A stretch of 64,000 bases of DNA from Mytilus trossulus (Eukaryota): positions 11,160,001 to 11,224,000 of the forward strand of contig NC_086376.1 of assembly GCF_036588685.1 (NCBI RefSeq), given 5' to 3'. The position numbers and the translations under genes were made by a program. The notes beneath the pieces were generated by a model. It saw only the letters and a program-made list of their open reading frames with translations. It searched no databases and was not told where the DNA came from. Each line of letters starts with the position of its first letter. The first letter of the stretch is position 1. Shown here in pieces: positions 15,957-47,529 of this stretch.

Positions 15957-17481
15957 ATGAGAACCGCCATTGTTTTCGTTGTTTGCTTAATTGGTAAGTG
16001 CAATTAACTTACATGTGACCTGTTCTGTTAAGGAACAGGAATGAATTCCGACTTCAGGCCAGATACACATATTCTTATGAATTCTATTGGACATGTTTTA
16101 TTGCCAACATTAAGTATTCGGAAAATAATGTGGTGGAGACTTTCGCCATTTCTGTTACAAGAAATATGATATTTTGAGTTTAATTTTCCAAGGTATCAGT
16201 TATTTACGTACATATATTATTGGTTATAAGAAGATGTGATATAAGTGCCAATGAGACAACTCTCCATCACAGTCACAATTTGTAAAAGTAAACCATTTGC
16301 CATGATTAATACTAAGCATTGCATACAGCTGGGCGCCTTGTATTGTACATGCTAACCTAGAATGTGTTGTCCAAGATCCGTAATCTGTAGTCAATAATGA
16401 TACTCTTTCACACTAAGTAATGAAGACACTATTGTGCATTTGGAACGGATATAATTAATGTTATGATAATACATAGACACTTTGCATCGGCAAACTGATT
16501 CGAAATTGTGACCGTAAATCTGTACAATTTCCAATGATTTTTTTTGATTTTTTTCATATATTTTATTAAGTTGTTGCACTCATTATTGTATAACTTTGAA
16601 CTTTGATTACAAAAAAAAAAGACATTGAACTCTTAAAATTCACCGAAGTAAACACCGCGTACATTTTGTATATTAGAAAATGGTAATGGGATAAATTACA
16701 CCGTTTATTTAAGTTTTCTTTTATATCATATTCCATGTTTATATTACTTGAACCGGGAACATAATTGCGTCCTTCCATTTTATATTCATAGTACAATATA
16801 TTTCTAACTCTTACAATTTATATTTTTTAATGAAAGAAGAGCACTCCAAGATTTTTTTTATTAAATTGTGTTTTACAGCATATGTTACCGCAGAGACATG
16901 TTCAGGCAACAATAACTTGGACACACAGTGCTCCCATCTCACTTGTGATCAGGGATGGCATTTGGCCTGTAATAGTGGACAATGTACTTGTGTTCAAAAC
17001 ACCGCAAACGGTAAGTTTGGAAAACTTGTTTTAGAAAAAATAATTCAATTATAATACATGTAAATTTTATTATTATGTTTCCTGGCTTGGAATATATGTA
17101 ATTTCACGTTTTCATCGAATAAAGTCTTGTCTGTTTAAAAACGTGAAACAGCAGTCCACAAATTTCTACTTAAACAACTGTTGAGCATCACGAGTCGAAC
17201 TACACACCTGGTTTTAACTATGACGCCCGACAGGGTAAACAATATCTGCTTTACCAGGGGCACATGTAATAAAAACAACAACAAACGCGACACAACGTTT
17301 ACAAAATTTGGGTTAGTGAGAATTGCGGCCTTAGTCTTTGCATTTAAACCTTATAGTTTACATATTTTAATAAATTGCAGCTTGTACTACTAAAGCAGAG
17401 TGTGATGCAGTTTCTAACTGGGATTGTCCAATGAACCGTCGCCATTGCATTGATGGTACATGCAGGTGCACCAGATTCTAG
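15957..17481 (+). CDS. cvSI-2-like (MEROPS I84) secreted 12-Cys serine protease inhibitor-like peptide, gene A, 89 aa
   Basis: Exons 15957-15993, 16879-17010, 17381-17481 (GT-AG, phase 1/1, 270 nt): MRTAIVFVVCLIAYVTA-ETCSGNNNLDTQCSHLTCDQGWHLACNSGQCTCVQNTANACTTKAECDAVSNWDCPMNRRHCIDGTCRCTRF*. Signal peptide, 12 mature Cys; GQCTC and HC.DG.CRC motifs match oyster cvSI-2 as recalled. AATAAA at 17569. Confidence 0.88.
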
Positions 17482-17751
17482 TTTACTTGGACCTCGAATG
17501 AAAGAAAATCATTACCGATCATTCATTCATCTTTATCTGTTACCTAACATATTTCGAATTAGAGAACGAATAAAGATGTCACAATATGTTTTTCTTTTTC
17601 AAAAAAATATTTCCAATATTGATTTAAAACCTCAGCAAAGTACATACACTATATATATATTTTTTTGTAGCACTTCGATGTTTCTGTTGTTTCCTTGTTT
17701 TTCTCCTGTATTTGATGTGTTTTCCTCAGTTTATTTTTAACCCTAATTTGT

Positions 17752-18083
17752 TTTTTCTCCATCGCTTTATGACTTTCGAACAGCGGTATTCTATTGTTGC
17801 CTTTGTTTCAACCGTTAGAGAATATTTTCAATAAAATTTAAATCAAATACTTATGAAGTGAAAAGCAAAAAAAGCATAGCTTATCTTCCTGCTTTCGCAT
17901 CATTTGTTATTTTAAACTAATGATAGCACAGTCAGAATTCTACCGCGTTAAAATTATCTCCCAATTATGCCACCTAATTTTTAATGCTGAAAATGAAAGT
18001 CACTGTTGGGATGAGGCGCTATCAATTAAGGTCCTGAAAACCTATTAATCGATCTAAATGTCATTGTTACGATTATAACATGG
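17752..18083 (+). repeat. Direct-repeat block copy 2 (homologous to 14505-14912)
   Basis: Collinear with copy 1 but lacks a ~75-bp segment present at about 14652-14725. Confidence 0.85.
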
Positions 18084-18295
18084 TAGTTGTTTTGTTACAG
18101 ACAAATGTATCGTATGGGATCATGATTCAATTCATTATACAGTCACTGGAAATAAGTATATCATACAGACAAGTTTAAACCAGTGACAACCATACTATAT
18201 ATATATACCCTCTGGATCTCAGAGTGATAATATACTTCAAATTATTGATACTAAAAAGGAAATTCTGATAAATATCTTGATCTTTTCCAAATATT

Positions 18296-18560
18296 GACAC
18301 AAATGGATGACTTTAAACTAGAACCTATGATAAATGTGAAAATTTCAACTTTTCAATTTTCAATCTTCCAGTTATCAGCAATAACATTTTATCTGCTCAA
18401 AATTTGCTCAATTGATTCGTTAACTAGTGTATGTTCAAACTATGCGAACTTCATTAGCCGGGATAGGCTCCTTACAATAAATACTGCTTCACATCTCACT
18501 TCATAAGTTTTAAGGTCGACATCACGAATTGGTTGACCTATAAGACGTGTATGTGTCTTA
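18296..18560 (+). pseudogene. Decayed Penelope-like element reverse transcriptase fragment
   Basis: Frame-shifted remnant reading roughly ...YDKCENFNFSIFNLPVISNNI..QLIR..SVCSNYANFISRDRLLT, similar to the YDKRDDFNFPIVNFPFLSSNIP..QLIRY motif seen more clearly at 36840-37040. Confidence 0.55.
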
Positions 18561-19344
18561 ACTCACTATCAATCACAGTCTTCGTTAGACCTTTATAAAT
18601 CATATTAGTCGTCTTATACGTTTCCCTCAGTTTAAGTTTGTAACCGGATTTGTTTTTTCTCTATCGATTTATGAATTTTGAACAGCAGTAAACTACTGTT
18701 ACCTTTATTTATTTGTAATGTTAACGATTGTATACTATTCCCCATTGTGAAATTTTCACTACATTTTGATTCGCAGGGCTGGTGATGTATGCATGTCAAG
18801 AGAAGCTTACCAATGGTCATTTTAATTATTCATGTCATTCTTATTTGCTTATGTACTTTGTCTTTAGAGTTTCTATATGGCTTTTTTTTTGTGGAAATAG
18901 TTATTTGTCTTATATTAATTAAGATCATAACACAAAATTGACTGCTGCCCTATTTTTGACAATTTTACCTCATATGTTTGTTATGCTCACGCACTGTTGT
19001 CAATATAATAGGAATGTTATGCGACTGTCATACACGTGAGAGGTTAAGCTAGCTGTAGAAACAGGTTTAATCCACCAATATCTACACAAGGAAATGTCCG
19101 TACCCAGTCAGAAATTATGGAATAAGTATTTTTCTGTATACGTTTAATGAGTTTGAGCTACTGATTGTACCATTTGATAAGTTTTTTTTTAATTTGTTAA
19201 ATAAGTATTACCAATCATCAATCTATTTTTCTAGAAAATATCCCTGTTAACAGTGTGCCAAAGCTACAACCATGTACACCATCAAAAGGATAAGATATCG
19301 GAGACACGAACACAGTTATTAAAAAAAGAAAACATTTTTTTTTA

Positions 19345-19795
19345 ACTCATAATAGATACCAGGACTAAATTTAGTATACGTCAGACGCGCGTTTCGTCTA
19401 CAAAAGACTCATCAGTGACGCTCGAATCGAAAAAGTTAAAAAGGCCAAATAAAGTACGAAGTTGAAGAGCATTGAGGACCAAAATTCCTAAAAGTTTTGC
19501 CAAATACAGCTAAGGTAATCTATGCCTGAGGTAGAAAAGCCCTAGTATTTCAAAAAATTTAAAAATTTGTAAACAGTAAATTTATAAATATAACCATATC
19601 AATGACAATTCATGTCAGCACAAAAAGTGTTGACTACTGGGCTTGTGTTACCCTCGCGGAAATAAATCTCCACCCGCAGTGGCATCGACCCAGTGTTTGT
19701 AAATAAACTCATTATAGATACCAGGACTAAATTTAGTATACGCCTGACGCGCGTTTCGTCTAGTATTTCAAAACATTAAAAAATGTGTACACAGT
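19345..19795 (-). mobile_element. Non-LTR retrozyme: one 362-nt monomer plus the start of a second, internally deleted unit
   Basis: Direct repeat AACTCAT.ATAGATACCAGGACTAAATTTAGTATACG..(A/T)GACGCGCGTTTCGTCTA at about 19345-19400 and 19706-19762. The cleavage-site GAC triplets at 19384 and 19746 are 362 nt apart. Intact hammerhead at 19379-19420. Confidence 0.82.
19379..19420 (-). ncRNA. Minimal type I hammerhead ribozyme, intact core
   Basis: Minus strand: CGUCA-CUGAUGA-GUC-UUUUGUA-GAC-GAAAC-GCGC-GUC^-UGACG. Stem I CGUCA/UGACG is perfect; core CUGAUGA and GAAA; stem II GUC/GAC; stem III region is the palindrome ACGCGCGU; GUC cleavage triplet. Confidence 0.88.
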
Positions 19796-20135
19796 GTAGA
19801 AGGATCTAGTTAAGGTTTGCTTTTGAATATTTTCACGTAATGGAATAAGAGACGATTGTACATGCATTGATTTTTACAAGCGAAAGGGAACGCGTGCTTT
19901 TCTTATATTCACCTTTTCATTGCTGATTCGAAGGTCTAGCGAAGAAATATAAATTATATTAACGTCAAATATTGATCTATGAGTTCTAACAGCTACTATA
20001 AAATCTATTTCAAAGCCAATCGTACATTCTAGAGGAATAAAAGAGAGGCAAACAAATTCAAAGGAACATACAAACTCAAAAATTAAAAAAAGATTGAAAA
20101 TAAAATCACAACGGAATGGCAGCCAACATATAAAT

Positions 20136-20340
20136 GATTTCAACATCAACACTTGGGGCACTTCGTTTTAAAGTTTATATGTGAGCAGCAACCCTCAATT
20201 AAGGAAATCATGAACGAGAATGAAGTACCAACTGAGAGATATATACTCCAAATGCAGGGTCTGATGAAAAGTTGCCACAAAAAAGTTGAAAGTTCACAAT
20301 TGGTAACTTAAATCACCGCCTTTGTCGTCAGGTTTTGTTC
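20136..20340 (-). pseudogene. Decayed Penelope-like RT fragment
   Basis: Aligns by eye with 36840-37040 (GTGAGCAGCAACCCTC, ATACTCC..ATGCAGG, GAAAGTTCACAATTGG..ACT.AAATCA). Confidence 0.6.
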
Positions 20341-23330
20341 TCATTTACCCTTGTTGGAAATTATAAAAAGTAAGTCCAAGATATGAGGCAGAACTGAATT
20401 TAAAAAAAAAAGATGTGGTATTATTTCCGATGAGACAACTCTTTACAAGTGACCAAATGACACAGAAATTAACAACAATATGTCACCGTAACCTTTAACA
20501 ATGAGCAAAACCCATTACGCATAGTCAGAATTTGTTTGTTTTTACAGTGATTTAGAACTTTATTTTTTTGTTTTACAGTGATTAATATTCTAACACAACT
20601 TTGACTGCTGTTCTCTTATTTTTGACATTTTTACCTATTATGTCTGTTTGTTTTATTCACACATCGCTGTCCATATACTGTATTGTAGTGCGACTGTCAT
20701 AAAAACGAGAGGTGTAGCTACCTATAAAACCAGGTTTTAACCACCGTTTTCTACATGAGAAAATTACTGTAAAAAGTCAGGAATATGACAATTATTATTC
20801 ATCCGCTTGATGTGTTGGAGCATTTAATATTGACATTTGATTACGGATTTTAGTTTTGAATTTTCCTCGGAGCTCGGCATTTTTGTTTTTTTTCTTTTGT
20901 AGCCGTTATTCAAAGTTCGATGAACTTGACGAATGTATCATATTAACCTAAGTTTTAACATGTTCTTTTAGACTAAAATACATTAGTTGTACAACTGCTT
21001 TGTTTTTTGTTATTACAACGCTTACCCGTGCTATGTAAGGGTTTGTGCGTTCACAAACATGTTAGTCTCACAACATTGTTTATGTACATATACCTAGTCA
21101 GGAGCCTGCAATGTAATGGTAGCCATTGGTCATGTCTGTTTTATTTGTTTTTCTTAAATTGTTTCATGAAAAATGTGGCACTGAGTTTGTTTTCGTTTGA
21201 TTTGATTCACATTTCTAGTTTCGGGGCTGTTTAAAGCCGACTATATGGTATTAGTTTGACATATTGTTCAAGGATGTAAGGTTGCCTATAACTGCTTATA
21301 TCCACTTCATTTAAACTGCAATGGATACTTGTTCTTTGGCAATCATACCACATTACCTTATTTGTATATTGAATTGCAGTTCTATATTCATTAAAATATC
21401 GTAATATCTTGCTTATTTACAACCCTCAAAAACCGATGCTGCAAGGTTTGCAGATAACAAAGATCTTAGATAACTGCAATAGTAACCGTTGAGTTTATAT
21501 GGTTATTTTCTGTGTGAAGTACTTATATATAAATCTTTTGATTTATAAGTCCATATCAAAACATTTGCCATAGCCATTAGGTATATTCGTTGTTTTTGAA
21601 AAAAAGATAATTAATATGTATTTATCCAAAGTGTTCATTGACTCTCGTGAACTTTAATTGGAACTTGAAACTTCTATATTCGAGCATCATTGATAATTTT
21701 TAAAGACGAAACTCGTGTCTTGCATCAAATATATGTATTTGATAAGTTATGAAGGGGAAAGCGTCAATACGGTTTCCATTACTAGTAACAGAAGAGAGTT
21801 TTATCCGCTTTCTTTTAAGAGGTTGAGTAAGATACAACATCAGGTTAAACCCAGCATTTTCTTTGGAATATGCCTGTACCAAGTAAAAAATATGACAAAT
21901 GTTTGGTTGAAAAAGAATGCTTTTGTCAGTTTTTAAAATTACTTTTAAGTCTTGTATTTCTGTTATACTTTTGTATTTTCTTCATTTATTTTTTTCCAAA
22001 TTTAATAATCTAGTTTACAAACACAAACTTGTGATAATTTATAGGTCAATATATAACAGCACTTATAGTCAAGGAATAATTTTCAAAACTGGAATGAAAC
22101 CTTTTCTTTAAATCTCGTCCATTACTAAGTTAGAAGATATATTAAATGCACGACATTAAGAAAAAATTTGTGCCTACAACAGGATTTCAGCTGTCAAAGA
22201 AATCGTCTTTATCTAAAATCTAAAAAAAAGAAAGAAAAACATACTGTCTTTTTTTATATACCTTTCGTTTTGTTTCTCAACATACTTATATCGATTCGTT
22301 GTTTTTTACATTCGCATCGGCCTATTTCATTTTAAATCGCTTGGTTTTGTTTTCAAATTTTATGAACCTTACTTTATTTGATCGTGAAATTGTTTAGGTT
22401 TTAGCAATACAAAGCATACTACTAGAATGCCGAAGAATAAGGTTGTTTGTGATTGGGTTTTCGAACTTTACAACTACTTTCAAGCTATTTTAATATATAG
22501 GTACATATATTTTACTGTTCTTAATTTGTACTAGAAATTAAAGTACTACAGATTTCTGGTTACACTTTTACAGTTATGATTTTCAAACATGGAATATTGT
22601 GATCACTGTTGATATTATTTCTGTACCAACATTTTTAGTATAAATCCAATACTGCAATATACAGTAATCAAGATATTACAACAATTTTAAAGTAAAAAAT
22701 AGTACTAAATATTAAAGATAAATCTCCAGTACTACAGATTTTTAGTACAGAAATAGTACCTTTGCAAAAGTAAGGAGCTGTAATTTCGATGCAAATTGTT
22801 TAAAATTCATATGATCTGTCAGATAAATTATTATTCGTACTAGAACTAACAATATATTTGGTATACCTCTCGTCTAAACTGAAAATAATTATGTCAGCGA
22901 CATCAGAAAACATGATGCACTAGTGCAAAAAGTCAGGTATTCATAATTTAAAAAGAAAACGACCAAACCATGAAGTAAATCAATTCATAACCCTAATTCC
23001 TCTAACGAAACACCCCCCCCCCCCCCAAACTAACCAAACAGAGATATCACATGTCATTGTTTTGAAAACAAGAATTGACATTTGCCTTGTTACTGTTAAT
23101 TGTCAAGGTAAAGTAAAATACTTTTTTTGTTTATTTTGATTCGTGATTTATCTTATAATTATATGTACTGATGACGAGGGTCGTTCCGTAATTAATGTGA
23201 AGCAGTTACTATTATAGACAAACCGTGACATCTTAATCTATGTGAAGGCACGATACAGACTTCCAGTATTTCTTTTATAAAGATTAAAATCCTGAACTTT
23301 CACAAATACTTGTTTTATTACATAACAACA

Positions 23331-25691
23331 ATGAAGACTGCAATTGCTTTCCTAGCTGTCTGTATTTTGGGTGAGTAGCAAGTTTATATGTTGATATTTA
23401 ACGATGTAAAAAAATATTTTGTTTTTAAGTGTTGGAAAGATGGAGTTTCCTTCAAACAGACATAATAATATGGAAACAGTCTCATGCTAAGTTCGTTTCA
23501 GCATTCCTCGATAACTAAGCAGAACAAAATGTCAAATAGGAAAAGCTTTAGAGGTTTAACACTTCATTTAAATACTTCATTTCTCAACTACATAGGTTAG
23601 ACATTGAAATATGTTTCTTTGAAGTAGGTGTGGAAGATACCAAAAGGGACAAGCAAACTCGTAGATCAAAATCAAACTGACAACGACTAAAAAAGAAAAA
23701 GACAAACAGACAAGTAATAGTACACAAGGCACAACAAAGAAAACTCAACATTGAGCAACACGAACCCTACCATAAACTGGGGGTGATCTCAAGTGCTCCG
23801 GGAGGATTAGCAGATCCTGCTCCACATGAAAATGTCCATTGTTAATAATGTGGAATAAACTCGTTTTTTATGCATTCTTTATTTATTTCTTTTCTTCCTG
23901 TTTCATGTACTCGAACTAAGAACTGGCATCCTTTATTTCTTATAATTCTCATAACAAACCTTTGACAAAGACCAACCATTATATACATTTATTTAGTGTT
24001 ACTTGGCTAATCAGTTTATTTTGGTTTCAGTAATTTTTTTAAGTTTGTTTTTTCAATTCTATTGTTAACATTGTTTTAAATGAAACGATTATTTACAGCT
24101 TTAGTTACTGGAGAACCATGTACAGGTAACACAAACTTGGACACTCAGTGCTCTCATCTGAATTGTGAATCTGGATGGCATTTAGCCTGTAATAATGGCC
24201 AGTGTACTTGTCTTCAAAACATTTCAAACAGTAAGTTGTAACACATTTGTATAGTACTTTTGATAACTATTGATATGCTGTTTAGAGTTTTCTACCAAAT
24301 AAGTCTCAATATGGGTAAAATCGACTGGAAATGCACAAATCAGTCAGTAGAGAGACTGGATTATACTTAGATACATGTCTAGTAAGTTGTTTACTACAAT
24401 AATAACTAACAACAGTTCCTAATAATATTCTCCAAATCATTACTGTTTACATTTATTTGGCATTTTTAATTTTTGGGATTCGAGCGTCACTGATGAGTCT
24501 TTTGTAGACGAAATGCGCGTCTGGCGTATATACTAAATTTAGTCCTGGTATCTTTGATGAGTTTTTTTTTACAGAAAAATAATGGTAAACCCGTTTTTCA
24601 TCTCTTTTTTGGGGGGGAGGAAGGGTCTGAAGCAATATTATTAAAACACCTCATTTATTCAAATAATATAATTGTGTGATATCCCTATTTAGAAGGTTTA
24701 AAACAATAATCTGGAATAATAACCACTTTTCTGGATATAAATGTTATCAATGTTTATAATATGTTATCAAAGGTACCAGAATTGTTTTTTAATACGCCCG
24801 ACACGCGTACATACAAAAGACTCATTAGTGACGCTCAGATCAAAATAGTTTTAAAGGCAAACAGAGCATTGAGGACCCAAAATCTCCAAAAATTCTGCAA
24901 AGTACGTTTAAGGTTATATATGCTTGGGATAAGAAAATCCTTAGTTTTATCGAAAAATTCAAAAAAAAAATTGTTAACAGGAAATTTAGAAAAATAACCA
25001 TACAATTGATATTTCTTGTCAACTCCGAAGTGCTGACTACTAGGCTGGTTATACTCTCTATTCGCTTTTTGAAAAAAATGAGTGAGTTGAGAATAATAAG
25101 AATGAGGAAGTTAGGATTAAAATCTTTCAAAGAGTATTTAAGGTATAAAGGAATTTTGAAAGAAATACATGCGCTTGCTATTTTATTAAATATTTACCTT
25201 TAGGTGGTACCCAACACCTTAACAAAAATTAATTTGGCTCGTTTAATTTTCATGAAATTTTGACAAAGTATTTACTTTGACCCTTTCACAAAAGTATGAA
25301 AGTTTCAAAACTTTTGAACCAACCGTTTTATCAGAAAAATTATACTGGTTATATAGCAGTTTGACAAACAGTAATCTCCCTATAGTGTTAGGTACCACCT
25401 TACAACTTGTTTTATGTTTAATGCTCTTGGTTAGATTAGTATCCATATGTACGGTTAACTTTGTCATTTTACCAGTATAGATGTAGTTGTAAAGATAATT
25501 AACAATGATTTCACCTGCCTGAATGTTATGTTATACAGTGTCCGTCAGTAAACTTTTTTAATAGAAAATCAAATGTTTTATTTTTTATAGCTTGTACTAC
25601 TAAAGCAGAGTGTGATGCAGTATCTAACTGGAACTGTCAAATGAACCGTCGCCATTGCATTGATGGTACTTGTAGATGTAGCAGATTTTGA
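23331..25691 (+). CDS. cvSI-2-like (I84) secreted 12-Cys peptide, gene B, 90 aa
   Basis: Exons 23331-23370, 24099-24230, 25591-25691 (273 nt, phase 1/1): MKTAIAFLAVCILALVTG-EPCTGNTNLDTQCSHLNCESGWHLACNNGQCTCLQNISNTCTTKAECDAVSNWNCQMNRRHCIDGTCRCSRF*. Close paralogue of gene A. TTATAAA about 55 nt upstream of the ATG. Confidence 0.88.
24485..24526 (+). ncRNA. Type I hammerhead ribozyme (retrozyme fragment about 24452-24560), sense strand in gene B intron 2
   Basis: CGUCA-CUGAUGA-GUC-UUUUGUA-GAC-GAAAU-GCGC-GUC^-UGGCG. Core intact; one G-U wobble in stem I and one C>U change giving U-G in stem III. Confidence 0.8.
24765..25055 (-). mobile_element. Degenerate retrozyme-family copy (variant with ATCAAAGGTACCAG end), ribozyme core broken
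   Basis: CAAAAGACTCATTAGTGACGCTC, GAGCATTGAGGACCCAAAAT, GTGCTGACTACTAGGCTGGT are collinear with 19400-19650. CUGAUGA is mutated and GAAA is lost. Confidence 0.75.
25202..25400. mobile_element. Non-autonomous TIR element (Kolobok-like MITE) in gene B intron 2
   Basis: Ends AGGTGGTACCCAACAC / GTGTTAGGTACCACCT (16 bp, 1 mismatch) in T/A-rich flanks. A second, longer copy lies at 45990-46379. Superfamily is a guess from RR..YY termini; TSD is not clean. Confidence 0.7.
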
Positions 25692-31560: not shown

Positions 31561-31644
31561 GTGAAACAATAGTTATTTTAGGTCTAACGTGAGACCTTTA
31601 TCTGTTTCAATGCACGCACAGCATACAATTTTGTCGTATATAAA
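31561..31644 (+). promoter_or_regulatory. Gene C proximal promoter: GATA site (TTATCT), MRE core TGCACGC (31611-31617), TATA box TATATAAA (31637-31644)
   Basis: The block aligns with the gene D upstream region (44861-44942), although flanks and introns do not align. TATA is about 50 nt before the ATG. Confidence 0.65.
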
Positions 31645-31690
31645 CTGAACTTCTGTTGGGACTTATAGGTTGCTACATGAAAGATAAACC

Positions 31691-34600
31691 ATGAAGATTG
31701 TAATTGCTTTCCTAGTTGTCTGTACTTTGGGTAAGTGAAACCTTTGATTTACTGAATTTGGTTTTGATTGTCGTTTATCGTTTATTTAAAAAAGAAAAAA
31801 AATGTGGTATGATTGATAATTGGACAACTCTTCAAGAGAACAAATACCAAAGGAATTAATAACTATAGATCATTGCTTGTCCGTTTACATATATGTTAGA
31901 AAACATCGTTCGATACATAGTTGTGTCATCTTTTTGCAAGTATACGGAGAAAATGAACACATTATATTTGATTCCATCTCCAATTTTGATCCTTTTTCTA
32001 ATTGTAATACCAAATTTTAGTTCAATGCATTCCTTCATTTTGGCTTTATGTAATTTAAAAGTTTAGTTGTACATATACTATTAAGCAGTCAGTTTAGAAT
32101 CTTAAGGACTTAAGTATGTGAACATTGCAATTCAAATTTCAATTGTTTTGGTTTAGGAAAGGTATTTTGTGATATGGCAATATTTTTAGATACTCCAAAA
32201 AAATCAAGATTTTTTTCAAATTTAGTGTCACATATTAACCATAATATTTTGAAGGTTAATAAGCCAAAAATGTTAAAATCTTTCTCATTTTTTTAATTGC
32301 TATTCCAATTTATTCATTAAACCTTGTCAATGTGGTTGTTATTCTAGATAATGAGAATAAAGTTTCAGTAAAACCTAAAACCTTTTAGTATATCTTAATA
32401 ACATATGTATATATAATAAATATATGAAATAAATTTTTGAATGATTTAAATTTACAAAATGTTTATGATATTAGAATAAGCTGTTGGCGCGTTTCGTCTA
32501 CAAAAGACTCATCAGTGACGCTTGAAAAAAAAAGTTATAGTAAAAGGCGAAATATCAAACTAATTTTAAGTACTTCTATGTTTATGATTTCATTATCGAA
32601 CCAAATCGTAAATCTTATGCTTTTGGGATATGAATTAATGATTTTATTAACTTGATTTCGACAAGGTTTATTCTCCAGATTAATCGAAAGATAAAACATA
32701 AACAGAGACGACAATAGATTTATTCTTTATAATTGTACATGTAGGTTACATCAGCTGTGAAGATTGTCCTACTAATAATCCTGACCGGGAATGTGACCAC
32801 ATACATTGTGAAGATCATTGGCATAAGGCTTGTGTATCAAATACCTGCACCTGTCTACATAGTACTGACGGGGGACAAGGTATGGATGATCATCAAAATG
32901 ACGCACAAAATGATATCCTTTCATTAATATGATAAATACTAAATAATAATTGAGGACTTTTGTTTCACAAAATCAATCTGGAGTGGGTGTTACATGTCTT
33001 CCTCATGATCAGTTTGATGTTTAGGCATCTGGTATTTTAAAACACCAGTTATAATTCTTGTTGGGAGTGGGGTAGTATTTTTTTAAGCCAAATACTTTGT
33101 TTTGTTTTAAAAATACCAATAACAATGTATCAACTAACATACAGGAACAAGTTGAAATTTTAATTTAATGATTGTTTTATATTTATACTTTTTTAAGCAC
33201 AACACATTGTGTCTTCGCCCCTTCTAAAAAACTATTGTTTTAAAAGAATTTAGAATCAGATATTTTATTTTAAAAAAAGATATGCCCTAATTACATGTGA
33301 GTTTTTAACTAGAAAACCCTGGGTATAGATGCTAATTAGAAAAAAAACCCACAACTTATTGGAACTAAGGTAATTGTCTAAATCGGTTATGGGTGAGAGG
33401 TTTATGCGCACGTAAATAAAGGCAACAGTAGTATGCCGATGATCAAAACCCATAAATCGATAGAAAAAGAAAAAATCTGGGTCACAAACCAAAACCGAGG
33501 GAAACGCATTAAATATAAGAGAATGACGACACAACATTAAAATATAACACACACAGAAACGAACTAAGCATTACACAAAATCAGATGAGAATTAAAAATA
33601 TACTATCAAAACTAAATACATGAATTTGGGATAGAAAATTACTGTGACACGTCTTATAATAATGTGAATTCACACTCAAATATAAGAGGAAACAAACGAC
33701 ACAAAAGAAATACAACTCTAAAATGTAACACACAGAAACGAACTATAATATAACAATGACCTTATTCCTGACTTGGTACGGGACATTTTAAAGAAAAAAA
33801 AAGTGGGTTGAACCTGGTTTTGTGGCATGCCAAACCTCCCTCTTTTATGGCCATGTTTATTATAACATTAAAATGACAACACAACATTACAGGACTACAA
33901 TACAAATAAATAGGAGAACACAATTGACAAACACACACGAATAATAGCTAACAAAAGGCACCGAGTTTAAAATGTAATACACTAGAAGTGCGTTTTGTCC
34001 ACACAAGAATTACTAGAGACGCCCTGATACAAAAGCCAAAACAAGTAAAAAGTTCAACAGCATCGAGCATCGAGGACCAAAAGTTCAAAAAAGTTATGCC
34101 AGAAACGGCCATGGTTTACTGTAAGGTACCACCTGGATGACCCTTACACCATGCAGTGGATGTCGCACGTCATTAAACATGTGTCACAGTGGTTTGTGTT
34201 TATATGTTTTTATTTGGACGTCTGTTTTATTCTCATAGGAGAAGATAGGAGAAGATAGAAAATGATTCGTGTGGTCTGCAGTACTTTCAATTATATTTTG
34301 GTGGTTCCTATTGTCCTCTTTTATTTTTTAACTGTGTTTCGGATCAAATGTTATGCCTTTGATTTAGAAAAAACAGTTTATAGATATAAGGCTCATTATG
34401 GTTTTTTGCCCTTTGATGGTTTCGATTTTCCTCTTGCATTTTGTTGTTACACACATAAAGCACATGTTTATTCCTTCGAATATTAAAAGAACGACCATTT
34501 GGTTGTAGAGGTTTTTGAAGTGCATGGAAAATGTTGTAAATACATATCAGTGTTCACATAAACGTATATTTCTAGAAATAAAAAGATTGGAAAACAAACC

Positions 34601-35341
34601 ATTTAATTTAAACATTTAAATCTCACCTTCACTAGCTTTGTGTATTAGTTTGTCTCTTAAAAATCGACGTTTCGTTCAGTTCGATTTTAATTGTGTTCAT
34701 AAAATTTTAATATTCGGAACAAATCTATATATGTAGTTCTTATTACACATCAAATCAAGAGATAATTTTTACACTTTACCATTCAAGAAATGCCTATTTG
34801 GAGAACACTATAACGTTATTCGTTGATGAACGAAGCAGAGCTTTCTTTTGTGTTATAGTGCTGAATTTGATAAACCTACATGATCGACTGTTGACATCAA
34901 AACCTATTATGAACCATTCAAACATGTGTTCTATGCAATGTTAGCATGTTCTAAATGTTTGAGTTTCAGAATATCGTAGTTCAATTAACAATAACACGAC
35001 GGATAGTGTATAAATAACACCAAAGTTTTTCCTTTCTACGCATTATGTTTTGTTCCTTTAAGAGTTTTCTCAGTTGTAGTTTGACATTTTGAACTGTCTT
35101 CTCTGATCGATTTATGACACTTGAACATAGATAAATGAACTCTTCATAGAAACGACTATTAACTATATATACCTTTAATGAAATGACAACTGTTAAACAA
35201 GTACGAAAGTAAGTCTAATTTGTTTAATGATTTGTTACAGCATGCACAACCAAAGCCGAGTGTGACGCCATAAATGGTTGGTCCTGTTCAAACTCACGAC
35301 GACATTGTATAGATGGCAGATGTCGTTGTTCTAGATTTTAG
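31691..35341 (+). CDS. cvSI-2-like (I84) secreted 12-Cys peptide, gene C (His/Asp-rich subtype), 91 aa
   Basis: Exons 31691-31730, 32745-32879, 35241-35341 (276 nt, phase 1/1): MKIVIAFLVVCTLGYISC-EDCPTNNPDRECDHIHCEDHWHKACVSNTCTCLHSTDGGQACTTKAECDAINGWSCSNSRRHCIDGRCRCSRF*. AATAAA at 35385. Not in the ORF track. Confidence 0.88.
32487..32522 (-). mobile_element. Truncated hammerhead (retrozyme fragment), antisense in gene C intron 1
   Basis: Minus strand GCGUCACUGAUGAGUCUUUUGUAGACGAAACGCGC, then similarity stops just before the GUC cleavage triplet. Confidence 0.75.
33414..33960 (+). repeat. Dispersed repeat (family starting AATAAAGGCAACAGTAGTAT.CCG.TG.TCAAAA) with internal subrepeats
   Basis: The same end occurs at 13925 (+) and on - at about 14560, 17800 and 18700. 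ACACAGAAACGAACTA is repeated internally. Class undetermined. Confidence 0.65.
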
Positions 35342-38703: not shown

Positions 38704-40101
38704 CTTTACACAGACATAAGCCATGGTTGTAACAGGACAAACATCTGCTGCAGGACTTATTTACCAACGCGTTTCTGGAAAGAAAAAAGAGTTATTGGTG
38801 ACAATATTCGATGTTCAAGGCCCATTTATGAAAATGTCGGGATTAAAGCAGCTTCTTTTTTTAATGCAAAGTTTATATCAACAGATGAAGTCTGGTTAAA
38901 AATAAAAAAAGTAAAATTTTACAGAAGGTCGCATGCGACATTGTAAATGCACAATTGAAATATGGCACTTAAAACTGGACATTTTGTATATTCAAAATGT
39001 CCAAAAAATGTGAGAAAAATAAAATAACACATCCGTTATTCGATTTGTACGGATGTGAAGGTAAGCATATATATGTGTGCGAAGAAGGTACTCCTACTTT
39101 TATGATTCAGTAAAGATTCAAAGTTTAATTTATGAATCTTATAGACGACAACGATAAAGACGTCGCGCAAGATACTGGTGACAATTTGAAGGTGATTCGA
39201 GAAAAATCGGCGAAAAGGCTAACTGTCCGTTTAGGACGCAACAATTTGCAGAATCGCTAAATAATTTTCGTTACCCAATCTAATGGCAACATAATATCTG
39301 TTTTTCATGATATTTTTTTCACGAATAGGTTTCGATTTGAAGCGCGAAATTTTATGAAATAGGCAATTTTGACGTGTAATGCGTAACATTGAACATTGAG
39401 ATCTCCAAACATTTTTGAGAATGAAATATGGATTGAGTAGCCAAAGGTAGTTCTCATTTGGAAGGAATTTAGAACCATATGTAAAGTTTTGAATTACATA
39501 ATTTTACTTACATATATGACGTCATACATGTAGAAAAATGACGTCATAGCAACTTTTTGATCTTGTAATGGTGACAAATAATCTAGACTCCAACTGCAAA
39601 CTTTGAAGATCAAATTCATATACTGAAGGTAATTTTAAAAGGATATCATTTATATTTATAATTTATAAATTACAAACATTTCTGTTTAAATTGGTACCAA
39701 ACTTTTTGAGTTTACTTGTTTTAAAAAAAAAAAACTATTGAAAAAATTTAAAATCAGAAAAAATGTCCCGTATCATCTGAAATCCAAACAAATATTCCAT
39801 TTTGACGATTTCGGGATCTACGATGTATCGCGATTAAATCAGAAGAAAAATACTGATACAGATTTCAAAAATTACAACAAATACTGAACATGATAATATA
39901 AATACTGGCTGTTTTTATATTTTATCCTTTTCGCAAATAAAGTAAAGAAAAATCAGAAAAAATGTCCAATGAGACAAAAAACGTCGAAAAATAATGAAAC
40001 GTCATATTTCACACAGAGTCAATACGCAAAAGAAATTAAAAGAAGAACTTGTAAAGAATCGATCTTCAAACATGAAACGATATGGGCATGTTTTTGCCTT
40101 A

Positions 40102-40706
40102 GGGAGCTTCCATTTGATTTTTAATGGGGGGGGGGGGGGGGGGGGGGGGGGCTAGAATGAAATTTGAAAAAGAGGGAGGACAGGGGTTTTGAGTGTAAAA
40201 AAAAGGCAGACAGGAGTTTCGAGTAAAAAAATAATGAATAAGAATGGAAACGGGGAATATGTCAAAGAGATAACAACCCGACCAAAACGTAGAAAACAGC
40301 TCAAGGCCACCAATGGGTCTTCAACATGCGAGAAATCCCGCACCCAGAGGAGGTCTTGAGTAGGCCCCGAAATCCTAATGTATACTAGATCAAGAAAATG
40401 GACGCCACTCTTCACTTCGAAACACAGAGATGAACTAAAAGTAAAAAAATATAAAAGACTAACAAAAGCTATAGGTACCTGACTTAGGACAGGCGCGAAC
40501 TGCGGTGGGGTTAAAAGGGCAGGATGAGCAATAATTATTGGCAAACAAACCCAGGATAAACTTGTAAAAAAAGGCAGGACCAAATATAGTGAAAATAAAA
40601 AGGCAGGACCGAGATAACAACTAAAAAAAATGCCGGACAAAATTTTTCATCCTAGCACCCCCCCCCCCCCCCCCCCCCCCCCCATTAAAATCAAATGGTT
40701 GCTCCC
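40102..40706. mobile_element. PIF/Harbinger-type MITE with poly-G/poly-C inside long TIRs, nested in the Sola2-like element
   Basis: TTA|GGGAGCTTCCATTTGATTTTTAAT-G27-CTAGAATGAAA ... TTTCATCCTAGCA-C26-ATTAAAATCAAATGGTTGCTCCC|TTA. It contains a dispersed-repeat copy at about 40237-40515 (AGAATGGAAA.GGGGAAT..GTCAAAGAGA.AACAACCCGACC, also at 30045 and on - at about 12750). Confidence 0.85.
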
Positions 40707-41027
40707 TTAATGAAATAAAAATATTATTCTATAATTCGTAAAAGATGATTTGACTTTAGGAAGTTCTGAAACAATCTAAAAGAAGAGTTACCATATTAGA
40801 TAATTTTCGTAGACAAAACAAGAGGCACCAATCCCTTCAAACAACCGAAATGATCTCTGGTGTTTCAGGAGAATGATTAGTTCCAAAAAAATAAAACACG
40901 AGACAAAAAAGACTCATATTTAATTATTGAATGTATTTATAAACCAACAATCAATTAAAATAATCGGACTTAAAAAAATCAGACCAAAATTTTGTGTACA
41001 TTCAAATATAAATATGCTTTCAGAAAT

Positions 41028-44000
41028 ATGAATAACAGAAAAAAAAGTAAACTTTCGGCTAAGGAAATACTTATTAGGAACAGAGAACGAAAAAGGCTTC
41101 AGAAAAATGAAACGAGTAGAAAATCTTATGGAAAGTTGTACAAGAATAAAGAGAGCGAGACAAAAACATATAGTCAAACGATTAATGCAAGAAAAAAGAG
41201 AGAACAAAGGGAGAAATCTAAGAAAATAAATGAAAGAAAACTGAAAAATAAAATGAATGTCCGTAAACACAGAGGTAAAAAAAATGTAGAACTTTCATCA
41301 ATGTCACTTGTTGTACCAGAAGGTTCAAATGTTTTCAAAAACAGAATGGAAAAGGCCAGAGCCCTAAGAAAATTTAAAGAAGGTTTACCAAAATCTCCAT
41401 CTAAACGATGCGCAGTTATATCGACTTATTTGGCCCGCAGATCCCCTCGATCGCCAACAATAGCTAATCTGAAACATTCAGTTTCGCCAGTTGAAATGGC
41501 CGTCGTTGCAGATATTCAAGAAATAATAAAATCTACAAAATTAAAGCGATCTAAGAATGCACGTTCGGTAATGAATTCTGTTACTGCATCAATCAGCGGG
41601 GAAAATTTAGCAAACTCGAGAGGTAAAATTAAACTGTGTAAAAATTTAGGTTTGCCAGCAAGAAGGGTTGCTGGAGGCCAGCGTATTAGGTCTAGAATTC
41701 TTAAAAGTGAATCGTCTGCATGGGCTCTTACGCAACAGAAAACAAGAAAAGATTCCATTTCAGAAGAAACAAAGAAAACAGTTTATAACTTTTGGCTCTC
41801 TGATGGCATATCACACCCGACCGGCAACAAATCCGATATCAAAAGAGAACGATTGGGACCAAACTTATATACTTCGCATATGACACACGTGCTGGAAAAA
41901 ACACAAACTGATGCGTATTTAGATTTTGTCGCCAAATATCCGGAAATTAAAATTGGACAAAGAGCATTTGAGAAACTTCGACCGTTTTTCGTAAGACCTG
42001 CATCTGAAAAAGATAGAAATACATGCTGTTGTAGATATCACGTGGAAGCAAACCTTGTTTTCAAAGCATGTATGAAGTTCAGAAAATCGTGTGACAGGGA
42101 AACCGATTCGCAAGAAAGTGACTATCCCGTATTTGAGAAAATGTCAGACCTTATACATATTACGCTATGTCCAAAAGTAAATGGATTTTATAGAAAAAAT
42201 TGTCTTGACCGAAAATGTAGCCTTTGCGGAGTTGGTAATTTCAAACTTTCACCCAACGAATCACAGTCGTCTTCAACTGTTGAATGGCAAAAATATGAAT
42301 ATATAACTGAAAAATCGAAGGGTAAAAATGTAAGGCGCCGACTGACCCTGATAAAAAAGAAAACTAGCGTAAACGAAATGTTTCTCAATTTAAAAAAGCT
42401 TCTCGAAACTTTCCCCGCTCACCAGCACCGATCAAACTGGCAAAGCAATCAACTTAAAAGTCTTGTTCAGAACTTGCCAGTCAATCATTGCATATGCATC
42501 CACGATTATTCGGAAAATTATCGCTGTGTCGAGAAAGAAGAAATCCAATCCAATTACTTCCAAAGAACTGAATGCAGCATTCATGTAACCGTCATGCACC
42601 GACACGCCATTTTAGAATACGATGGTGTAGACAGTACAGAAGAATTTCCGGAAATAATTACGGAACATTTTTTCGTAATTTCCCCGGACCTGCAACATGA
42701 TAATGATTTTACAAAATATGTCCAAAAGAAAGTTAAGGAATATTTAGATTCAATATCATACACAGTTGATCATATGCATGAATTCACAGACGGTTGTTCT
42801 AGCCAATATAAATCGCGGCACTGTTTAGGAAGTTTATCTACTGCCATCCCTGATTTCGGATATAAAACATTCCATAGAAATTTCTTTGAAACAAGCCATG
42901 CAAAAGGGCCTCAAGATGCCGCGGGGGGATTTATAAAAAGACAGGCGGACATATCTGTTCTACGTGGCAATACAGTGATTCAGAATGCGAAGGATTTATT
43001 TACGTTCTGCGAAAGTAGCCTTAAAAAGCCAAGAAGTGCATTATTTAAAAGAAGGGTATTTCGATATGTGGACTCAATTGATAGACACAATTCCAAAATA
43101 TTTAAGCCGATCCAGCAAAATAGACAAATACATCATGTTTTTACTAGTACATGTAATGAAATCATTGTTTCCAATCTCTCTTGTTACACGTGCGATCAAT
43201 GCATTTTGGGGAATTATCTTAACTGTTTAAATGTAGAAAATACCGGGGTAAAGAAAACTACATCTTCGCTAGCCAATGGTTACGATCCACTCCCGCTCTC
43301 TTCACCCTTGGCGGATTGAGATAAAATTTCGGAGACACAAGGTAAGGATTTTTATTGGTTGCAGTCAAAACTCACTGCATCCAATCAAAATGCGCCTGTA
43401 ACATGATCACGTGTAAATGTAGAAAGTGTTTGTAAACAATTGCCACGTGTTTTTTGTGCAACAAGCCTTTACATCCCTAAACATACGACTATATTTAGTG
43501 AAAACTTGAATGTTTTAATCAACAAATGGAAGTTCCTGTGTATGTTTCATGCACAAATGCATGAATGTTGACGCATGCTTTCATTTCCGGCTTTACCAAG
43601 TGTGTAGCATCTAGACGCTACCGTGTTTTTACCTCCAAGCTGAAGAGTTCAAGTGCTACCATTGGTCAAGACTAATGTATTCGGAATTGGCGTGGTTTTT
43701 ATCTTCCGATAGATGGCGCAACATTGTTATCACAAATGTTGGCTCAATCCGCCAAGGGTGAAGAGAGCGGGAGTGGATCGTAACCCTTGGCTAGCGAAGA
43801 TGAGAAAACTATTAAGCCACGCGAAATAACACAAACTTCTAACGAAGAAGAAGTAGCACAAGACACTGACATTCTTTCAGAAGACATATCAGATTTGGTA
43901 TCCATAAACTCTGTTGTGGCTGTCAAAACCGACGATGATAACTTTGACTATTATTTAATGAAAATTTCCAAAGGTTCACACGTATTGAATTCAGCAGAGA

Positions 44001-44242
44001 GTGACAGCTGGGGTGCTACATATCCCCCTGGATTCGAGGTTTTCCGGGGTCATTATTATGACAAAATCAGTGACAATGATCCGTTAAAATATAAACTTTT
44101 AAAGACAAAGACTGCTTTGGTACCGACGAAATCTCTGCTATACATACTTGCTGATGTAGATGCCTCTTATCGTATAACTATTTCAGAGGACATGCACCCA
44201 TCTAGACATTCTTTCTGTATTGGACAATTTGGATTGAAATAA
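41028..44242 (+). pseudogene. Sola2-type DDD transposase interrupted by a MITE (41028-43260 joined to 43812-44242; 887 aa when restored)
   Basis: Motifs TCCCRYH, HDYSENY, FTDGCSSQYKS, FFETSHAKGPQDAAGG, SCYTCDQC match the DFSENY / SDGCxxQxK / TSHGKGPxDG pattern I associate with Sola2 transposases. Basic N-terminus. Removing 43261-43811 restores VKKT-IKPREITQ in frame. A TTTCAG at 41018-41023 may be an acceptor for an upstream exon. Confidence 0.8.
43261..43802. mobile_element. 542-bp MITE with 60-bp TIRs and 9-bp TSD (MULE/Mutator-like by TSD length)
   Basis: TIR CATCTTCGCTAGCCAA(T/G)GGTTACGATCCACTCCCGCTCTCTTCACCCTTGGCGGATTGAG at 43261-43320 and inverted at 43743-43802 (59/60). Perfect TSD AGAAAACTA at 43252-43260 and 43803-43811. 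Confidence 0.93.
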
Positions 44243-44860
44243 GAATTAAATTATAAAACATCATGCACTGTTGTTTAGCCACTCATAAAATAGTTTAGTA
44301 GACCTTTCCGATTCAAATGAAATGATTCAACGTGGCTCTGCTTATAATTAAAAAATATAAAATATATAAAAATTGCGGTTTTTATCCAACGCAGTCATAG
44401 GTTTGAACGTAGTTTTCAATTTAGACTCGTATATATATATATATATACATTTTTCGTTAAATAAAATATACATGAATATCTTTACTGAAAAAAAATATTC
44501 CCATGAAAAAAAACCTGAATGAATCAATGCTTACACATTAGAAATCACATTAGAAAAACGTTACGTAAAAAACAAGAAAATAAGACGGCTTTTTGCTATA
44601 TTTCCGACGTTACGTTATTATCACCAGTATTTTGCGCGACGTCAAAATCAAAGCGAAGGTGAAAAAAAAGTTTGTGAAGTTAGGAAATTCAGTGAAGGCT
44701 ATAGTACTAGTAATTGTTTCACTATTGTTATATTGTTGTAATCATTTGACATAATGGGAAGGAATCTTTAAATCAGTCGAGTCGAATTTCAGATCGTGAT
44801 ATCTACATCATTTACTACATGGCAGACATGCTTTAGTTCCATATTTCGGTCAGTCTTAAT

Positions 44861-44942
44861 GTGAAGCATAGTTATTTTGGTCAACCATGAGGGTTTTATC
44901 TATTTTAATGCACGCATAGATAATTTCTTTTACGTATATAAA
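44861..44942 (+). promoter_or_regulatory. Gene D proximal promoter: GATA site, MRE core TGCACGC (44909-44915), TATA box TATATAAA (44935-44942)
   Basis: Conserved with the gene C promoter, including identical 26-nt MRE-start to TATA-start spacing. Confidence 0.65.
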
Positions 44943-44989
44943 GTTCTAACAGAGTTGTAGTTTATCATTCGATATACACAATTTAAACC

Positions 44990-47529
44990 ATGAAGATTGT
45001 AATTGCTTTTCTCGTTGTCTGTCTTTTGGGTAAGTAAACAAGTAATTTTTTTTATCAATGAACTTATTTAATGTGTATGTTGATTTATCATTGCAAGTAT
45101 ATTCACTACGAGTGGATAATTAATAATACTACAGACGAAATGGTTTGTTTTCAAAGAAAAATATTGCATCGCAGCAGGTTTTCAGAGATTGAGTCATTTT
45201 ATTTACTGAATGCTTCAAACCAATCCGACACCCAATAAACAAGCCTCTTACCACCGGAAGCGAGAAGTGACTATTGACTATTCACCTCAGTTCAAAATAA
45301 GTTTCAAGTGCTTTTTCGCTAAACCATTTGTAACGCATTTATAACATAATTGATGTTGAATTATGTGTTCGCCACTAGGTACTATGATTATCATTTTGAT
45401 GATAGTATTTCACGTAGAAGGTTCATCAAAACGGTCATCAAAATGTAACGAGGACGGTAAAATTTTTATTTTTTTTAATACTGAGAGGACAAATTGCATC
45501 GTTTATTATTGGCCATTCTTAAGATCATTCTTCTCTAGCACAGACATTTAACATTCAATTCTCTATAAAACAGTCATACATGTCAAATGTCAGAATAACT
45601 AATGCCTATATTTATGACTTTGTTCTCGCATGTACAGCATGTAAATATTCCAATAAGGAATTCTAACTCGACAAATTACATTAATACATGTTTGATTTCT
45701 TCCATGTTTAAAGTTGAAGTAATGATTTAGTTTTACTTTCTTTCAAGTCCATATGTGAAAAGTGTAAAGTAGAATGTACCACCATGGCATCAAAAGTGAA
45801 TAATGTTTGTAAATGTATGTGTAGGTTTAATCAGTGCCGAGGATTGTCCTACTAATAATCCTGACCGGGAATGTGACCACATGAAATGTGAAGATCATTG
45901 GCATAAGGCTTGTGTGTCAAGCACCTGCACCTGTCTACACAGTACTGATGGAGGACAAGGTATGAAAGATTCTAAATACGATATGTTTCGGTGATACCCA
46001 GCACCTTGACAAATATTAATTTGTCTAGTTTAATTTTCATAAAACTTTGACACAATGTATACTTTGACCCTTTGACAAAAATATAACAATTTCAAATAAT
46101 TTGAACAAACCACTATGTCAGAAAAAAAATGTTGGTTAAATAGCAATTTGACAAACACTAATTTTGATCTTTGAGAATCTTAATATTTCCTATAAAAAAC
46201 AACATGATTAAACATTGAAGCATTTGAAACATTTTATTGAAACATTTATTTCACTGAAGACCTCACATTAGGCATGATAGTACAACACTATAACAAATAA
46301 GAAATAATACATGAACAAACATAGTAAAACGATTAGCTGATTTTTACAGAGTTATCTCCCTGTAGTGTTAGGTAGCACCATATCTACAGATTACATATAC
46401 ATCTTTTAAAAGTTTTCATAATTTTCTAGAGGTCGCTCACATGTATTTTTTTTATACTGAAAAACGAAATTAAGACATATTTTAGAAATACCTTAATTAG
46501 TGAAATGATTTGAACTACGCACTCGAATAGACCATTTGATCACATTTGGAACACTTTGGAAAAATATTGTATGTGTATGGCATTGTTTCAATTGTTTTGC
46601 ACTATTTTCCCTGAATCTTTCCGTATGTTGTATCTTTCATAACGAGCAATGCTTCCCCTGTCTTGCTCCTTTTAAATTTCCTGTGATTAACTTCGTTTTT
46701 TCACGAGAAATGGATATTAATAAGCTCGGTTTTTTTCTCCGAGTAGTTTTAAAAGAAATAATTGCACTCTGGCATTAAAAGAAGTATGTGTCTGGTCAAA
46801 GACATCCATAAGCTATTTTTCTGTTTGGTAGTACTTTAAGTTTAAGATGTATTTGTTTGAAATAACGTGTGCTTGAAAATAAGAGGTGGATTTACTGAGG
46901 TATTAACATATGGTCATCACTTGGACATTTTCCTTTCCAAAAGTAAAACCTTTACTATAATAGGAAATTTTCTTGACAGTGTTGGATGTGTACATTCGGA
47001 ATGGATGTTTAATCAGATGCAAATCAGGAGAAGTGTCATGCTCTTTAACAGGTTCATAGTTGGTCTATCCAACATACCCTCATTCCCAATGGCAGTCCAA
47101 ATCCCACTTCATTATGTGCTCTCTCTACCTTGCAGAACCTAGTACCTTTTGTAAAATATATTAAGGTGGTCTCCTCCTGAATGTATAGTGTCAAGCATGC
47201 AATGATTAATCAATCAATCTTTTACATTTGATTTTGAAAAATATTTGTTTAAATCACCGCCATCTAAACTTTAGTGAATAATTGGTTCGTCAACTATATC
47301 TTCAAATGCAAATGATGACAGGTTAACTGGAACTATTGTTTGAAATCCGAACATGGTAGTATTTTTCACCATATACACATTTTTAAAGAAACAATATTAA
47401 ATAGAATCTGTTTCATGATTTATTTCAGCCTGCACAAGCAAAGCCGAGTGCGACGCCATAAATGGTTGGTCCTGTTCAAACTCACGCAGACATTGTGTTG
47501 ATGGTAGATGTAGATGTTCCAGATTTTAG
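44990..47529 (+). CDS. cvSI-2-like (I84) secreted 12-Cys peptide, gene D (His/Asp-rich subtype), 91 aa
   Basis: Exons 44990-45029, 45825-45959, 47429-47529 (276 nt, phase 1/1): MKIVIAFLVVCLLGLISA-EDCPTNNPDRECDHMKCEDHWHKACVSSTCTCLHSTDGGQACTSKAECDAINGWSCSNSRRHCVDGRCRCSRF*. Confidence 0.88.
45990..46379. mobile_element. Older copy of the 25202-25400 MITE family in gene D intron 2
   Basis: GGTGATACCCAGCACCTT...TTTAATTTTCAT.AAA.TTTGACA...TACTTTGACCCTTT...ATCTCCCT.TAGTGTTAGGTAGCACC is collinear with the gene B copy. Confidence 0.75.

Follow-up and report, generated by a model that had tools for sequence, protein, structure and literature searches.

A tandem cluster of four I84 (cvSI-like) genes in the mussel Mytilus trossulus

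Four genes of one plan in tandem

We analysed a 64,000-nucleotide stretch of the Mytilus trossulus genome (RefSeq assembly GCF_036588685.1, contig NC_086376.1, positions 11,160,001 to 11,224,000 of the forward strand; hereafter the window, with position 1 as its first letter) and describe a cluster of four small genes, A to D, that encode cysteine-rich peptides like the oyster subtilisin inhibitors (cvSI) of MEROPS family I84. All four lie on the + strand at 15957-47529, and a six-frame scan combined with splice-site enumeration gave a single consistent model for each. The elements of the four genes are as follows.

15890, gene A, TATA-like box
15957..15993, +, gene A exon 1 (37 nt): start codon and the greater part of the predicted signal peptide; spliced to exon 2 in RNA contigs
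16879..17010, +, gene A exon 2 (132 nt): end of the signal peptide, module 1 (Cys 1-6) and linker; RNA-joined on both sides
17381..17481, +, gene A exon 3, coding part (101 nt): module 2 (Cys 7-12), ending CRCTRF and stop; XP_063431085.1
17569, gene A, AATAAA
23331..23370, +, gene B exon 1 (40 nt): predicted signal peptide; TATAAA at 23276
24099..24230, +, gene B exon 2 (132 nt): module 1; RNA contigs cover 24098-24230 in two of four runs
25591..25691, +, gene B exon 3, coding part (101 nt): module 2, ending CRCSRF and stop; XP_063431086.1
31691..31730, +, gene C exon 1 (40 nt): predicted signal peptide; TATA-like box at 31637
32745..32879, +, gene C exon 2 (135 nt): His-rich acidic module 1
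35241..35341, +, gene C exon 3, coding part (101 nt): module 2, ending CRCSRF and stop; XP_063431087.1
44990..45029, +, gene D exon 1 (40 nt): predicted signal peptide; TATA-like box at 44935
45825..45959, +, gene D exon 2 (135 nt): His-rich acidic module 1
47429..47529, +, gene D exon 3, coding part (101 nt): module 2, ending CRCSRF and stop; XP_063431088.1

Each gene thus has three coding exons of 37/40, 132/135 and 101 nt, and all eight introns (370-2361 nt) are GT-AG and in phase 1. The reading frames contain no stops or frameshifts and encode precursors of 89 (A), 90 (B), 91 (C) and 91 (D) amino acids (aa). The exons terminating in CRC[TS]RF and a stop end at 17481, 25691, 35341 and 47529, each with a matching six-Cys exon upstream, and gaps of 5.8, 6.0 and 9.6 kb separate neighbouring genes. 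Every gene carries a TATA-like box 54-67 nt 5' of the start codon and a polyA-type hexamer within 100 nt 3' of the stop. An earlier note made from the letters of this window had described four co-oriented, intact genes of the same structure with this shared ending, and every number that we checked agrees; it had also seen only slivers of A and D among the open reading frames (ORFs), and at a 60-aa cut-off the ORFs in the coding frame were indeed just those holding exon 2 of A (16830-17054) and of D (45803-45994).

The two six-Cys spacing patterns, which were derived from genes A-D themselves, occur four times each in the window and not at all in 50 mononucleotide shuffles. A family profile matched exactly these eight Cys exons (E 2.5e-14 to 4.8e-11), and no fifth copy was found in the window, nothing else scoring below E 0.3.

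Annotation and transcription

The proteins of A-D are identical, letter for letter, to RefSeq XP_063431085.1, XP_063431086.1, XP_063431087.1 and XP_063431088.1, which are named 'Cvsi-2-like' and carry consecutive accessions on one 96-Mb sequence. These are automatic annotations that come without functional work. The cluster had been called hidden in the earlier note; since all four genes are RefSeq models bearing the family name, it is not. The concern that automated annotation could miss or fuse such genes likewise fails for A-D and holds for records of other Mytilus species. In a 218-aa GenBank entry of Mytilus coruscus, CAC5395192.1, a C/D-type peptide is fused to about 128 unrelated residues, part of which matches the window at 38702-38854. 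A D-type protein of M. galloprovincialis, AKK31571.1, bears the name 'serine protease F'; its accession was absent from the literature searched. Two 119-aa A-type models begin at an upstream ATG that in this window lies 5' of the TATA-like box and out of frame, so they are probably over-extended. The mis-joined, mis-named or probably over-extended records of related Mytilus are CAC5395192.1, AKK31571.1, VDI27397.1 and XP_071166951.1.

Identical and near-identical records all come from Mytilus. Close relatives of the A type were found in M. edulis and M. galloprovincialis and those of the C/D type in M. edulis, M. galloprovincialis, M. californianus and M. coruscus; C/D-type proteins are on record in five Mytilus species. 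No UBF4052x (mgSI) accession was among the records shown in the A/B or C/D clusters, and in a word-indexed protein search each query gave one or two clusters, all from Mytilus, with distant members absent.

Each of 24 public sequencing runs contained 27-34% of the words of a gene A stretch, matching the expectation for spliced RNA. We compared contigs from four of the runs, chosen for containing gene A (the RNA nature of two is a guess), with positions 15700-27700, that is, with genes A and B. Contigs bridged intron 1 of gene A in three of the four runs and intron 2 in all four, and each of two polyA runs held one contig with all three exons of gene A and one differing letter. Mapping RNA to the predicted junctions, a check suggested in the earlier note, therefore joined both introns of gene A; the outcome concerns that gene. 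For gene B, exon 2 was covered edge to edge in two of four runs, and no splice joint of this gene was among those listed for the four runs. One run showed a joint between exon 2 of A and exon 3 of B, with a 30-nt side and two extra letters. We did not accept it as read-through from A into B: it spells Asn-Ser-Cys, the A-type allele of M. galloprovincialis and M. edulis records.

With splice joints displayed for A alone, a transposon directly upstream of D and low-expressed duplicates common in the razor clam I84 family (PMC9198434; all statements from this article refer to the portions of it available), some of B, C and D could be silent copies or prediction artefacts. We consider this very improbable: their frames are intact, TATA-like boxes and polyA signals accompany all genes, C/D-type proteins recur across the five species, and the ratio of nonsynonymous to synonymous differences per site (pN/pS) stays far under 1 both for A-B and for C-D.

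Membership in family I84

I84 members are defined by a signal peptide followed by about 70 residues with 12 Cys, a mass of about 8 kDa and an acidic isoelectric point (pI), and their genes by three exons, two type-1 introns and six Cys each in exons 2 and 3 (PMC9198434). Mature A-D are 72-73 aa long with 12 Cys, 7.9-8.2 kDa, pI 5.8-6.3 and a net charge of -1 to -3. Judged by eye, their leaders are basic-hydrophobic stretches of 17-18 residues whose last residue is small, and the cleavage site, following residue 17/18, was likewise set by eye. The Cys intervals run 9/8,4,7,4,1,7/9,5,7,6,4,1; Cys 5-6 read CTC, and the last three Cys form C-x4-C-x-C. In C-type precursors (gene C, 32745-32879; M. 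edulis XP_071166035.1) the predicted -1 residue of the signal peptide is an additional Cys, where a shifted cleavage would leave a free thirteenth Cys.

A phmmer search of 1.84 billion representative proteins gave 30 matches at E<=0.001. The ten for which names were considered comprise five Cvsi-1/2-like clusters from bivalves, an uncharacterised protein from oyster, a defensin-like one from apple and three entries without a name. The cluster at E 1.8e-15 includes AQM52281.1 of Crassostrea virginica, which is cvSI-3 (PMC9198434). Pairwise, A is identical to cvSI-3 at 40 of 89 positions (45%, E 8e-25) and C at 36 of 91 (40%, E 2e-21). Ten of the eleven Cys intervals of cvSI-3 are equal in A/B and nine of eleven in C/D, and cvSI-3 shares with A-D the end W-x-C-x3-RRHC-[IV]DG-x-CRC-[TS]RF. 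The differences concentrate elsewhere: the first loop has 8-9 residues in A-D versus 5 in cvSI-3, the linker 9 in C/D versus 7, and the non-Cys residues of module 1 in common with cvSI-3 are 6 of 25 in A and 3 of 26 in C. After exclusion of eight of the 30 matches (partial, repetitive or plant), all 12 Cys columns were invariant in the 39 aligned sequences.

From the homology, the 12 Cys within about 70 aa and 8 kDa, the spacing array, the exon-intron plan and the mollusc host, we assign genes A-D by sequence to MEROPS family I84. The earlier note had proposed both this family and a mussel gene array, and both proposals stand. No Pfam model exceeded its cut-off on single window exons; the scores for Nodulin_late (PF07127) and EB (PF01683) were 9.9-15.7 bits, below the cut-offs of 30.4 and 24.3. 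We dropped the idea that the conserved C-terminal tail might act as a carboxypeptidase inhibitor; the available part of the NvCI paper does no more than cite cvSI-3 and draws no link (PMC6780499).

Two old subfamilies under purifying selection

Amino acid identity in exon 2 and exon 3 is 74 and 91% for A-B and 92 and 94% for C-D, whereas between A/B and C/D it falls to 45% in exon 2 and 66-75% in exon 3. The two subfamilies proposed in the earlier note are thus borne out. Synonymous sites between A/B and C/D are near saturation, so recent gene conversion is not the source of the exon-3 similarity. A tree of 36 rows and 71 columns, in which seven rows include an extra signal-peptide Cys stretch, supports a C/D clade of Mytilus (99/100). 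In all 12 exon-pair comparisons pN/pS lies between 0.11 and 0.50, and A-D are under purifying selection. Between A and C, replacements fall on 37 of 92 sites in exon 2 versus 15 of 75 in exon 3 (Fisher p 0.007, uncorrected counts). Across the family, no part of module 1 varies more in length than the C1-C2 loop, and module 2 keeps a conserved basic patch, RRH plus RCR...RF.

The subfamilies also differ in composition. Mature C and D hold six and five His, compared with three each in A and B; the net charge of module 1 is -5 in C and -4 in D. C and D could on this account be secreted metal-binding peptides acting through an acidic His-rich module 1, which we hold to be improbable, as the case is compositional only and the scaffold and module 2 are common to A/B and cvSI-3.

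A predicted pair of defensin-like modules

AlphaFold2 modelled mature A, with the 39 sequences, as two units (mean predicted local distance difference test (pLDDT) 75, predicted template modelling score 0.42). In each unit a one-turn helix stops at or close to the second Cys, and a beta-hairpin comes next; module 2 alone again gave helix plus hairpin at pLDDT 89. Foldseek returned no match at E<=0.001 among 32 for the two-module model and 8 for module 2. The plant defensin VrD2 was the sole chain among 48,161 to reach Z>=2 (Z 2.0, root mean square deviation (rmsd) 2.1 over 30 of 32 residues), and two of the eight chains re-aligned with module 2, the scorpion toxins LQ2 (Z 2.2) and ADWX-1 (Z 2.0), superposed at rmsd 2.1-2.5 over 30 residues. 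All these structural scores are at background level, so common ancestry with defensins or toxins is not established by them. We discarded Fstl1 (Z 2.0 by VIA-align with the two-module model, rmsd 7.7) and a 121-aa eggshell protein (PDB profile match, E 9.8). In the ESM Atlas the best feature scores were 0.77 and 0.81 versus a lead level of 0.9; the top match for C, a plant 'defensin-like protein 307' cluster, was not used as evidence.

By profile, the modules resemble each other and plant defensin-like repeats more than Cys-fixed shuffles do. The module-1 profile scored a mean of 20.5 bits on 28 module-2 sequences, kin to one another, versus 12.5 +/- 0.7 for Cys-fixed shuffles (none of 100 as high), and the module-2 profile scored 20.2 on the module-1 sequences versus 11.5 +/- 0.7 (none of 100). 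Direct profile-profile comparison of the modules was weak, with a probability of 4% from four sequences and 25% (E 1.5e-4) from 28. Gene A matches the apple (Malus) protein P0022, of the defensin-like protein 298 cluster, at E 1.6e-7; P0022 consists of three tandem six-Cys repeats of spacing 5,6,6,4,1, which the module-2 profile scored at 30-37 bits versus a Cys-fixed null of 10.7 +/- 2.1 (none of 100). Pfam Nodulin_late matches 14 of the 39 family members at E<=1, at best 2.7e-6. Together these module scores suggest an internal duplication of a defensin-like module, with convergence on a hairpin-turn pattern as a possible alternative.

The canonical cysteine-stabilised alpha-beta class pairs a C-x3-C helix motif with C-x-C. 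A-D lack this motif, their Cys2-Cys3 spacing being 4 in module 1 and 7 in module 2. Chickpea NCR13 has its Cys at positions 4, 10, 15, 23, 28 and 30 and folds as a short helix and a hairpin (PMC11637438, as far as available); it too has a Cys2-Cys3 spacing of 4, so only the canonical class is excluded for A-D.

A broader proposal follows the same lines: I84 would be a head-to-tail duplicate of one defensin/NCR-like three-disulfide module, its members two-headed peptides with a fast-changing first head that targets proteases and a constant second head. We give this somewhat less than an even chance. The second head, RRHC...CRC[TS]RF, is conserved from oysters to mussels and may have a separate, constant partner. 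The family paper describes the two I84 modules as differing in Cys arrangement (PMC9198434). No structural assignment of I84 was found in the literature searched, which did not take in two key I84 surveys, nor was a reactive site of I84 found in that literature or a solved I84 relative in the PDB.

The same likeness raises the question of function. As two-module defensin-like antimicrobial or signalling peptides, A-D might inhibit proteases secondarily or, in the cvSI-3-like branch, not at all. The apple repeat scores, the Nodulin_late matches, NCR13 as best PDB sequence match with the spacing of cvSI-3 module 1, and the conserved basic patch of module 2 all fit this proposal; yet A-D are net acidic, unlike the cationic killers among NCR peptides and defensins, the window exons score below every Pfam cut-off, the structural scores are weak (Z 2.0-2.2), and a shared fold shows no function. 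We rate it as having a small chance.

Ion-channel binding in the manner of short scorpion toxins is scarcely credible. Module 2 does align with alpha-KTx chains by profile (E 0.2-0.9) and with LQ2 in structure (Z 2.2, rmsd 2.1 over 30 residues), but neither match is significant (Foldseek E > 6). The Lys before the fourth Cys has a pore-blocking role in alpha-KTx toxins. In the A-D family that position is a near-invariant His, and the toxins' C-x3-C helix motif is replaced in module 2 by C-x7-C.

Likely inhibitors of microbial proteases

We favour, with a probability of about 0.6 and by analogy with studied members of the family, the reading that A-D are secreted peptides of two three-disulfide modules that bind microbial subtilisin-type serine proteases tightly. 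The hydrophobic leader of 17-18 residues would route the peptide into the secretory pathway, and the mature 72-73 aa would fold into two exon-encoded modules, each a predicted short helix and beta-hairpin with three disulfides (C1-C4, C2-C5 and C3-C6, assumed by analogy with NCR13 variant 1). A disulfide-locked loop would then occupy the protease active site as a poor substrate, as protease inhibitors generally do. The variable module 1 would adjust the choice of target, with module 2 as the conserved part, and the A/B and C/D types would stem from an old duplication, the pairs from later ones. Purified I84 members from oyster inhibit subtilisin-family proteases (PMC9198434). Both a defence role and protease inhibition are, on this analogy, likely for A-D.

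Several points weigh against this reading. The link to the assayed cvSI-1 and cvSI-2 runs through RefSeq's automatic name and cvSI-3: neither was returned by the protein searches with A-D or recognised among the ten named of the 30 matches, so the functional link is one step removed. For cvSI-3, the available text reports no assay and an expression about 1000-fold below that of cvSI-1/2 (PMC9198434). Counted on identical non-Cys residues, modules 1 and 2 do not differ significantly in how far A and C agree (9/25 vs 15/23, p 0.08), and the tree does not resolve the grouping of A/B with C/D (81/77) or their place relative to cvSI-3. There is no solved relative, the best PDB profile match being NCR13 at E 0.01. 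Finally, clam I84 genes are expressed mainly in the digestive gland (PMC9198434), a pattern compatible both with defence and with regulation of endogenous enzymes.

In an alternative reading, A-D are protease inhibitors whose chief targets are serine proteases of the mussel itself, digestive or haemolymph, and not those of microbes. Clam I84 expression is far higher in digestive gland than in gill, selection on A-D is purifying, not positive, and the available account of the clam family lists no positively selected sites (PMC9198434). On the other side, I84 genes are induced by pathogens, 8 of 14 clam genes are higher in Vibrio-tolerant animals, and a parasite protease is inhibited by cvSI-1, as cited in that article (PMC9198434). 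We regard restraint of the mussel's own proteases as unlikely, with an appreciable chance all the same.

The wider window

Between C and D, at 40974-44242 (+), lies a DNA-transposon-like ORF of 781 aa from stop to stop with no Pfam match above cut-off, whose motifs resemble those of DDE transposases. A non-coding element of 542 bp interrupts it at 43261-43802; this element has terminal inverted repeats of 69 nt (94%) and is flanked on either side by the same nine bases, AGAAAACTA. The coding sequence seems to continue in the frame at 43784-44242. A 23-nt inverted pair, 39159-39181 and 44621-44643, may mark the transposon's outer ends. Another element, at 40101-40707, has 50-nt inverted arms 507 nt apart that hold 26-nt poly-G and poly-C runs. 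Between B and C, 27794-28947 is a perfect (100%) head-to-tail duplication of about 574-580 bp, either a very recent duplication or an assembly artefact.

Outside the cluster, a 57-bp satellite occupies 6654-7949 (23 copies, 98% match, several frames open). A GNAT/glycine N-acyltransferase-like exon lies upstream at 11247-11774 (+; Acetyltransf_1 22.2 bits, cut-off 20.7), and Patched-domain (NPC1/PTCHD-like) exons lie downstream at 59818-61083 and 63426-63998 (+; Patched 24.5 bits, cut-off 23).

Comparison with known systems

With the genes annotated, the family described and tandem I84 arrays published for clam and oyster (PMC9198434), the cluster is of an already known kind, an ordinary mollusc defence gene cluster. 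We found no paper on these four genes in the literature searched, which excluded two I84 surveys covering Mytilus mgSI-1 to -3; three M. galloprovincialis members were reported earlier (PMC9198434). PMC9892467 and PMC5549309, as far as available, likewise contribute nothing about A-D. Mussel immunology gains four well-defined paralogues in two old subfamilies, and mis-named or mis-joined records in related Mytilus species are flagged. Should each exon prove to encode a defensin-like module, I84 would gain a fold and a place among defensin-like peptides, and single modules of about 32-40 residues could be synthesised and the inhibitory loop mapped directly.

NCR13, VrD2, the apple defensin-like 298 protein and short scorpion toxins resemble the modules of A-D in having six Cys and the end C-x4-C-x-C. 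The spacing of NCR13 equals that of cvSI-3 module 1 (5,4,7,4,1), and its short helix followed by a beta-hairpin corresponds to the fold predicted for the A-D modules (PMC11637438). A-D differ from NCR13, defensins and scorpion toxins in their tandem pair of modules, net acidic charge and lack of a C-x3-C helix motif.

Within the family, cvSI-1 and cvSI-2, the assayed type members, have the same features by description (PMC9198434), and RefSeq names A-D after cvSI-2; as the comparison is by description only, their activity is not simply transferable. In the razor clam, 13 of 14 I84 genes (scSI-1 to scSI-14) lie in tandem clusters (PMC9198434). These genes are like A-D in exon-intron plan, 6+6 Cys, tandem arrangement and purifying selection, and their peptides in pI (about 5-6) and mass (7-9 kDa). 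The spacing sets the mussel peptides apart at two places: the first Cys interval is 9 in A/B versus 5-8 in the clam, and the eighth is 7 in all of A-D and in cvSI-3 versus 3-6 in the clam (PMC9198434).

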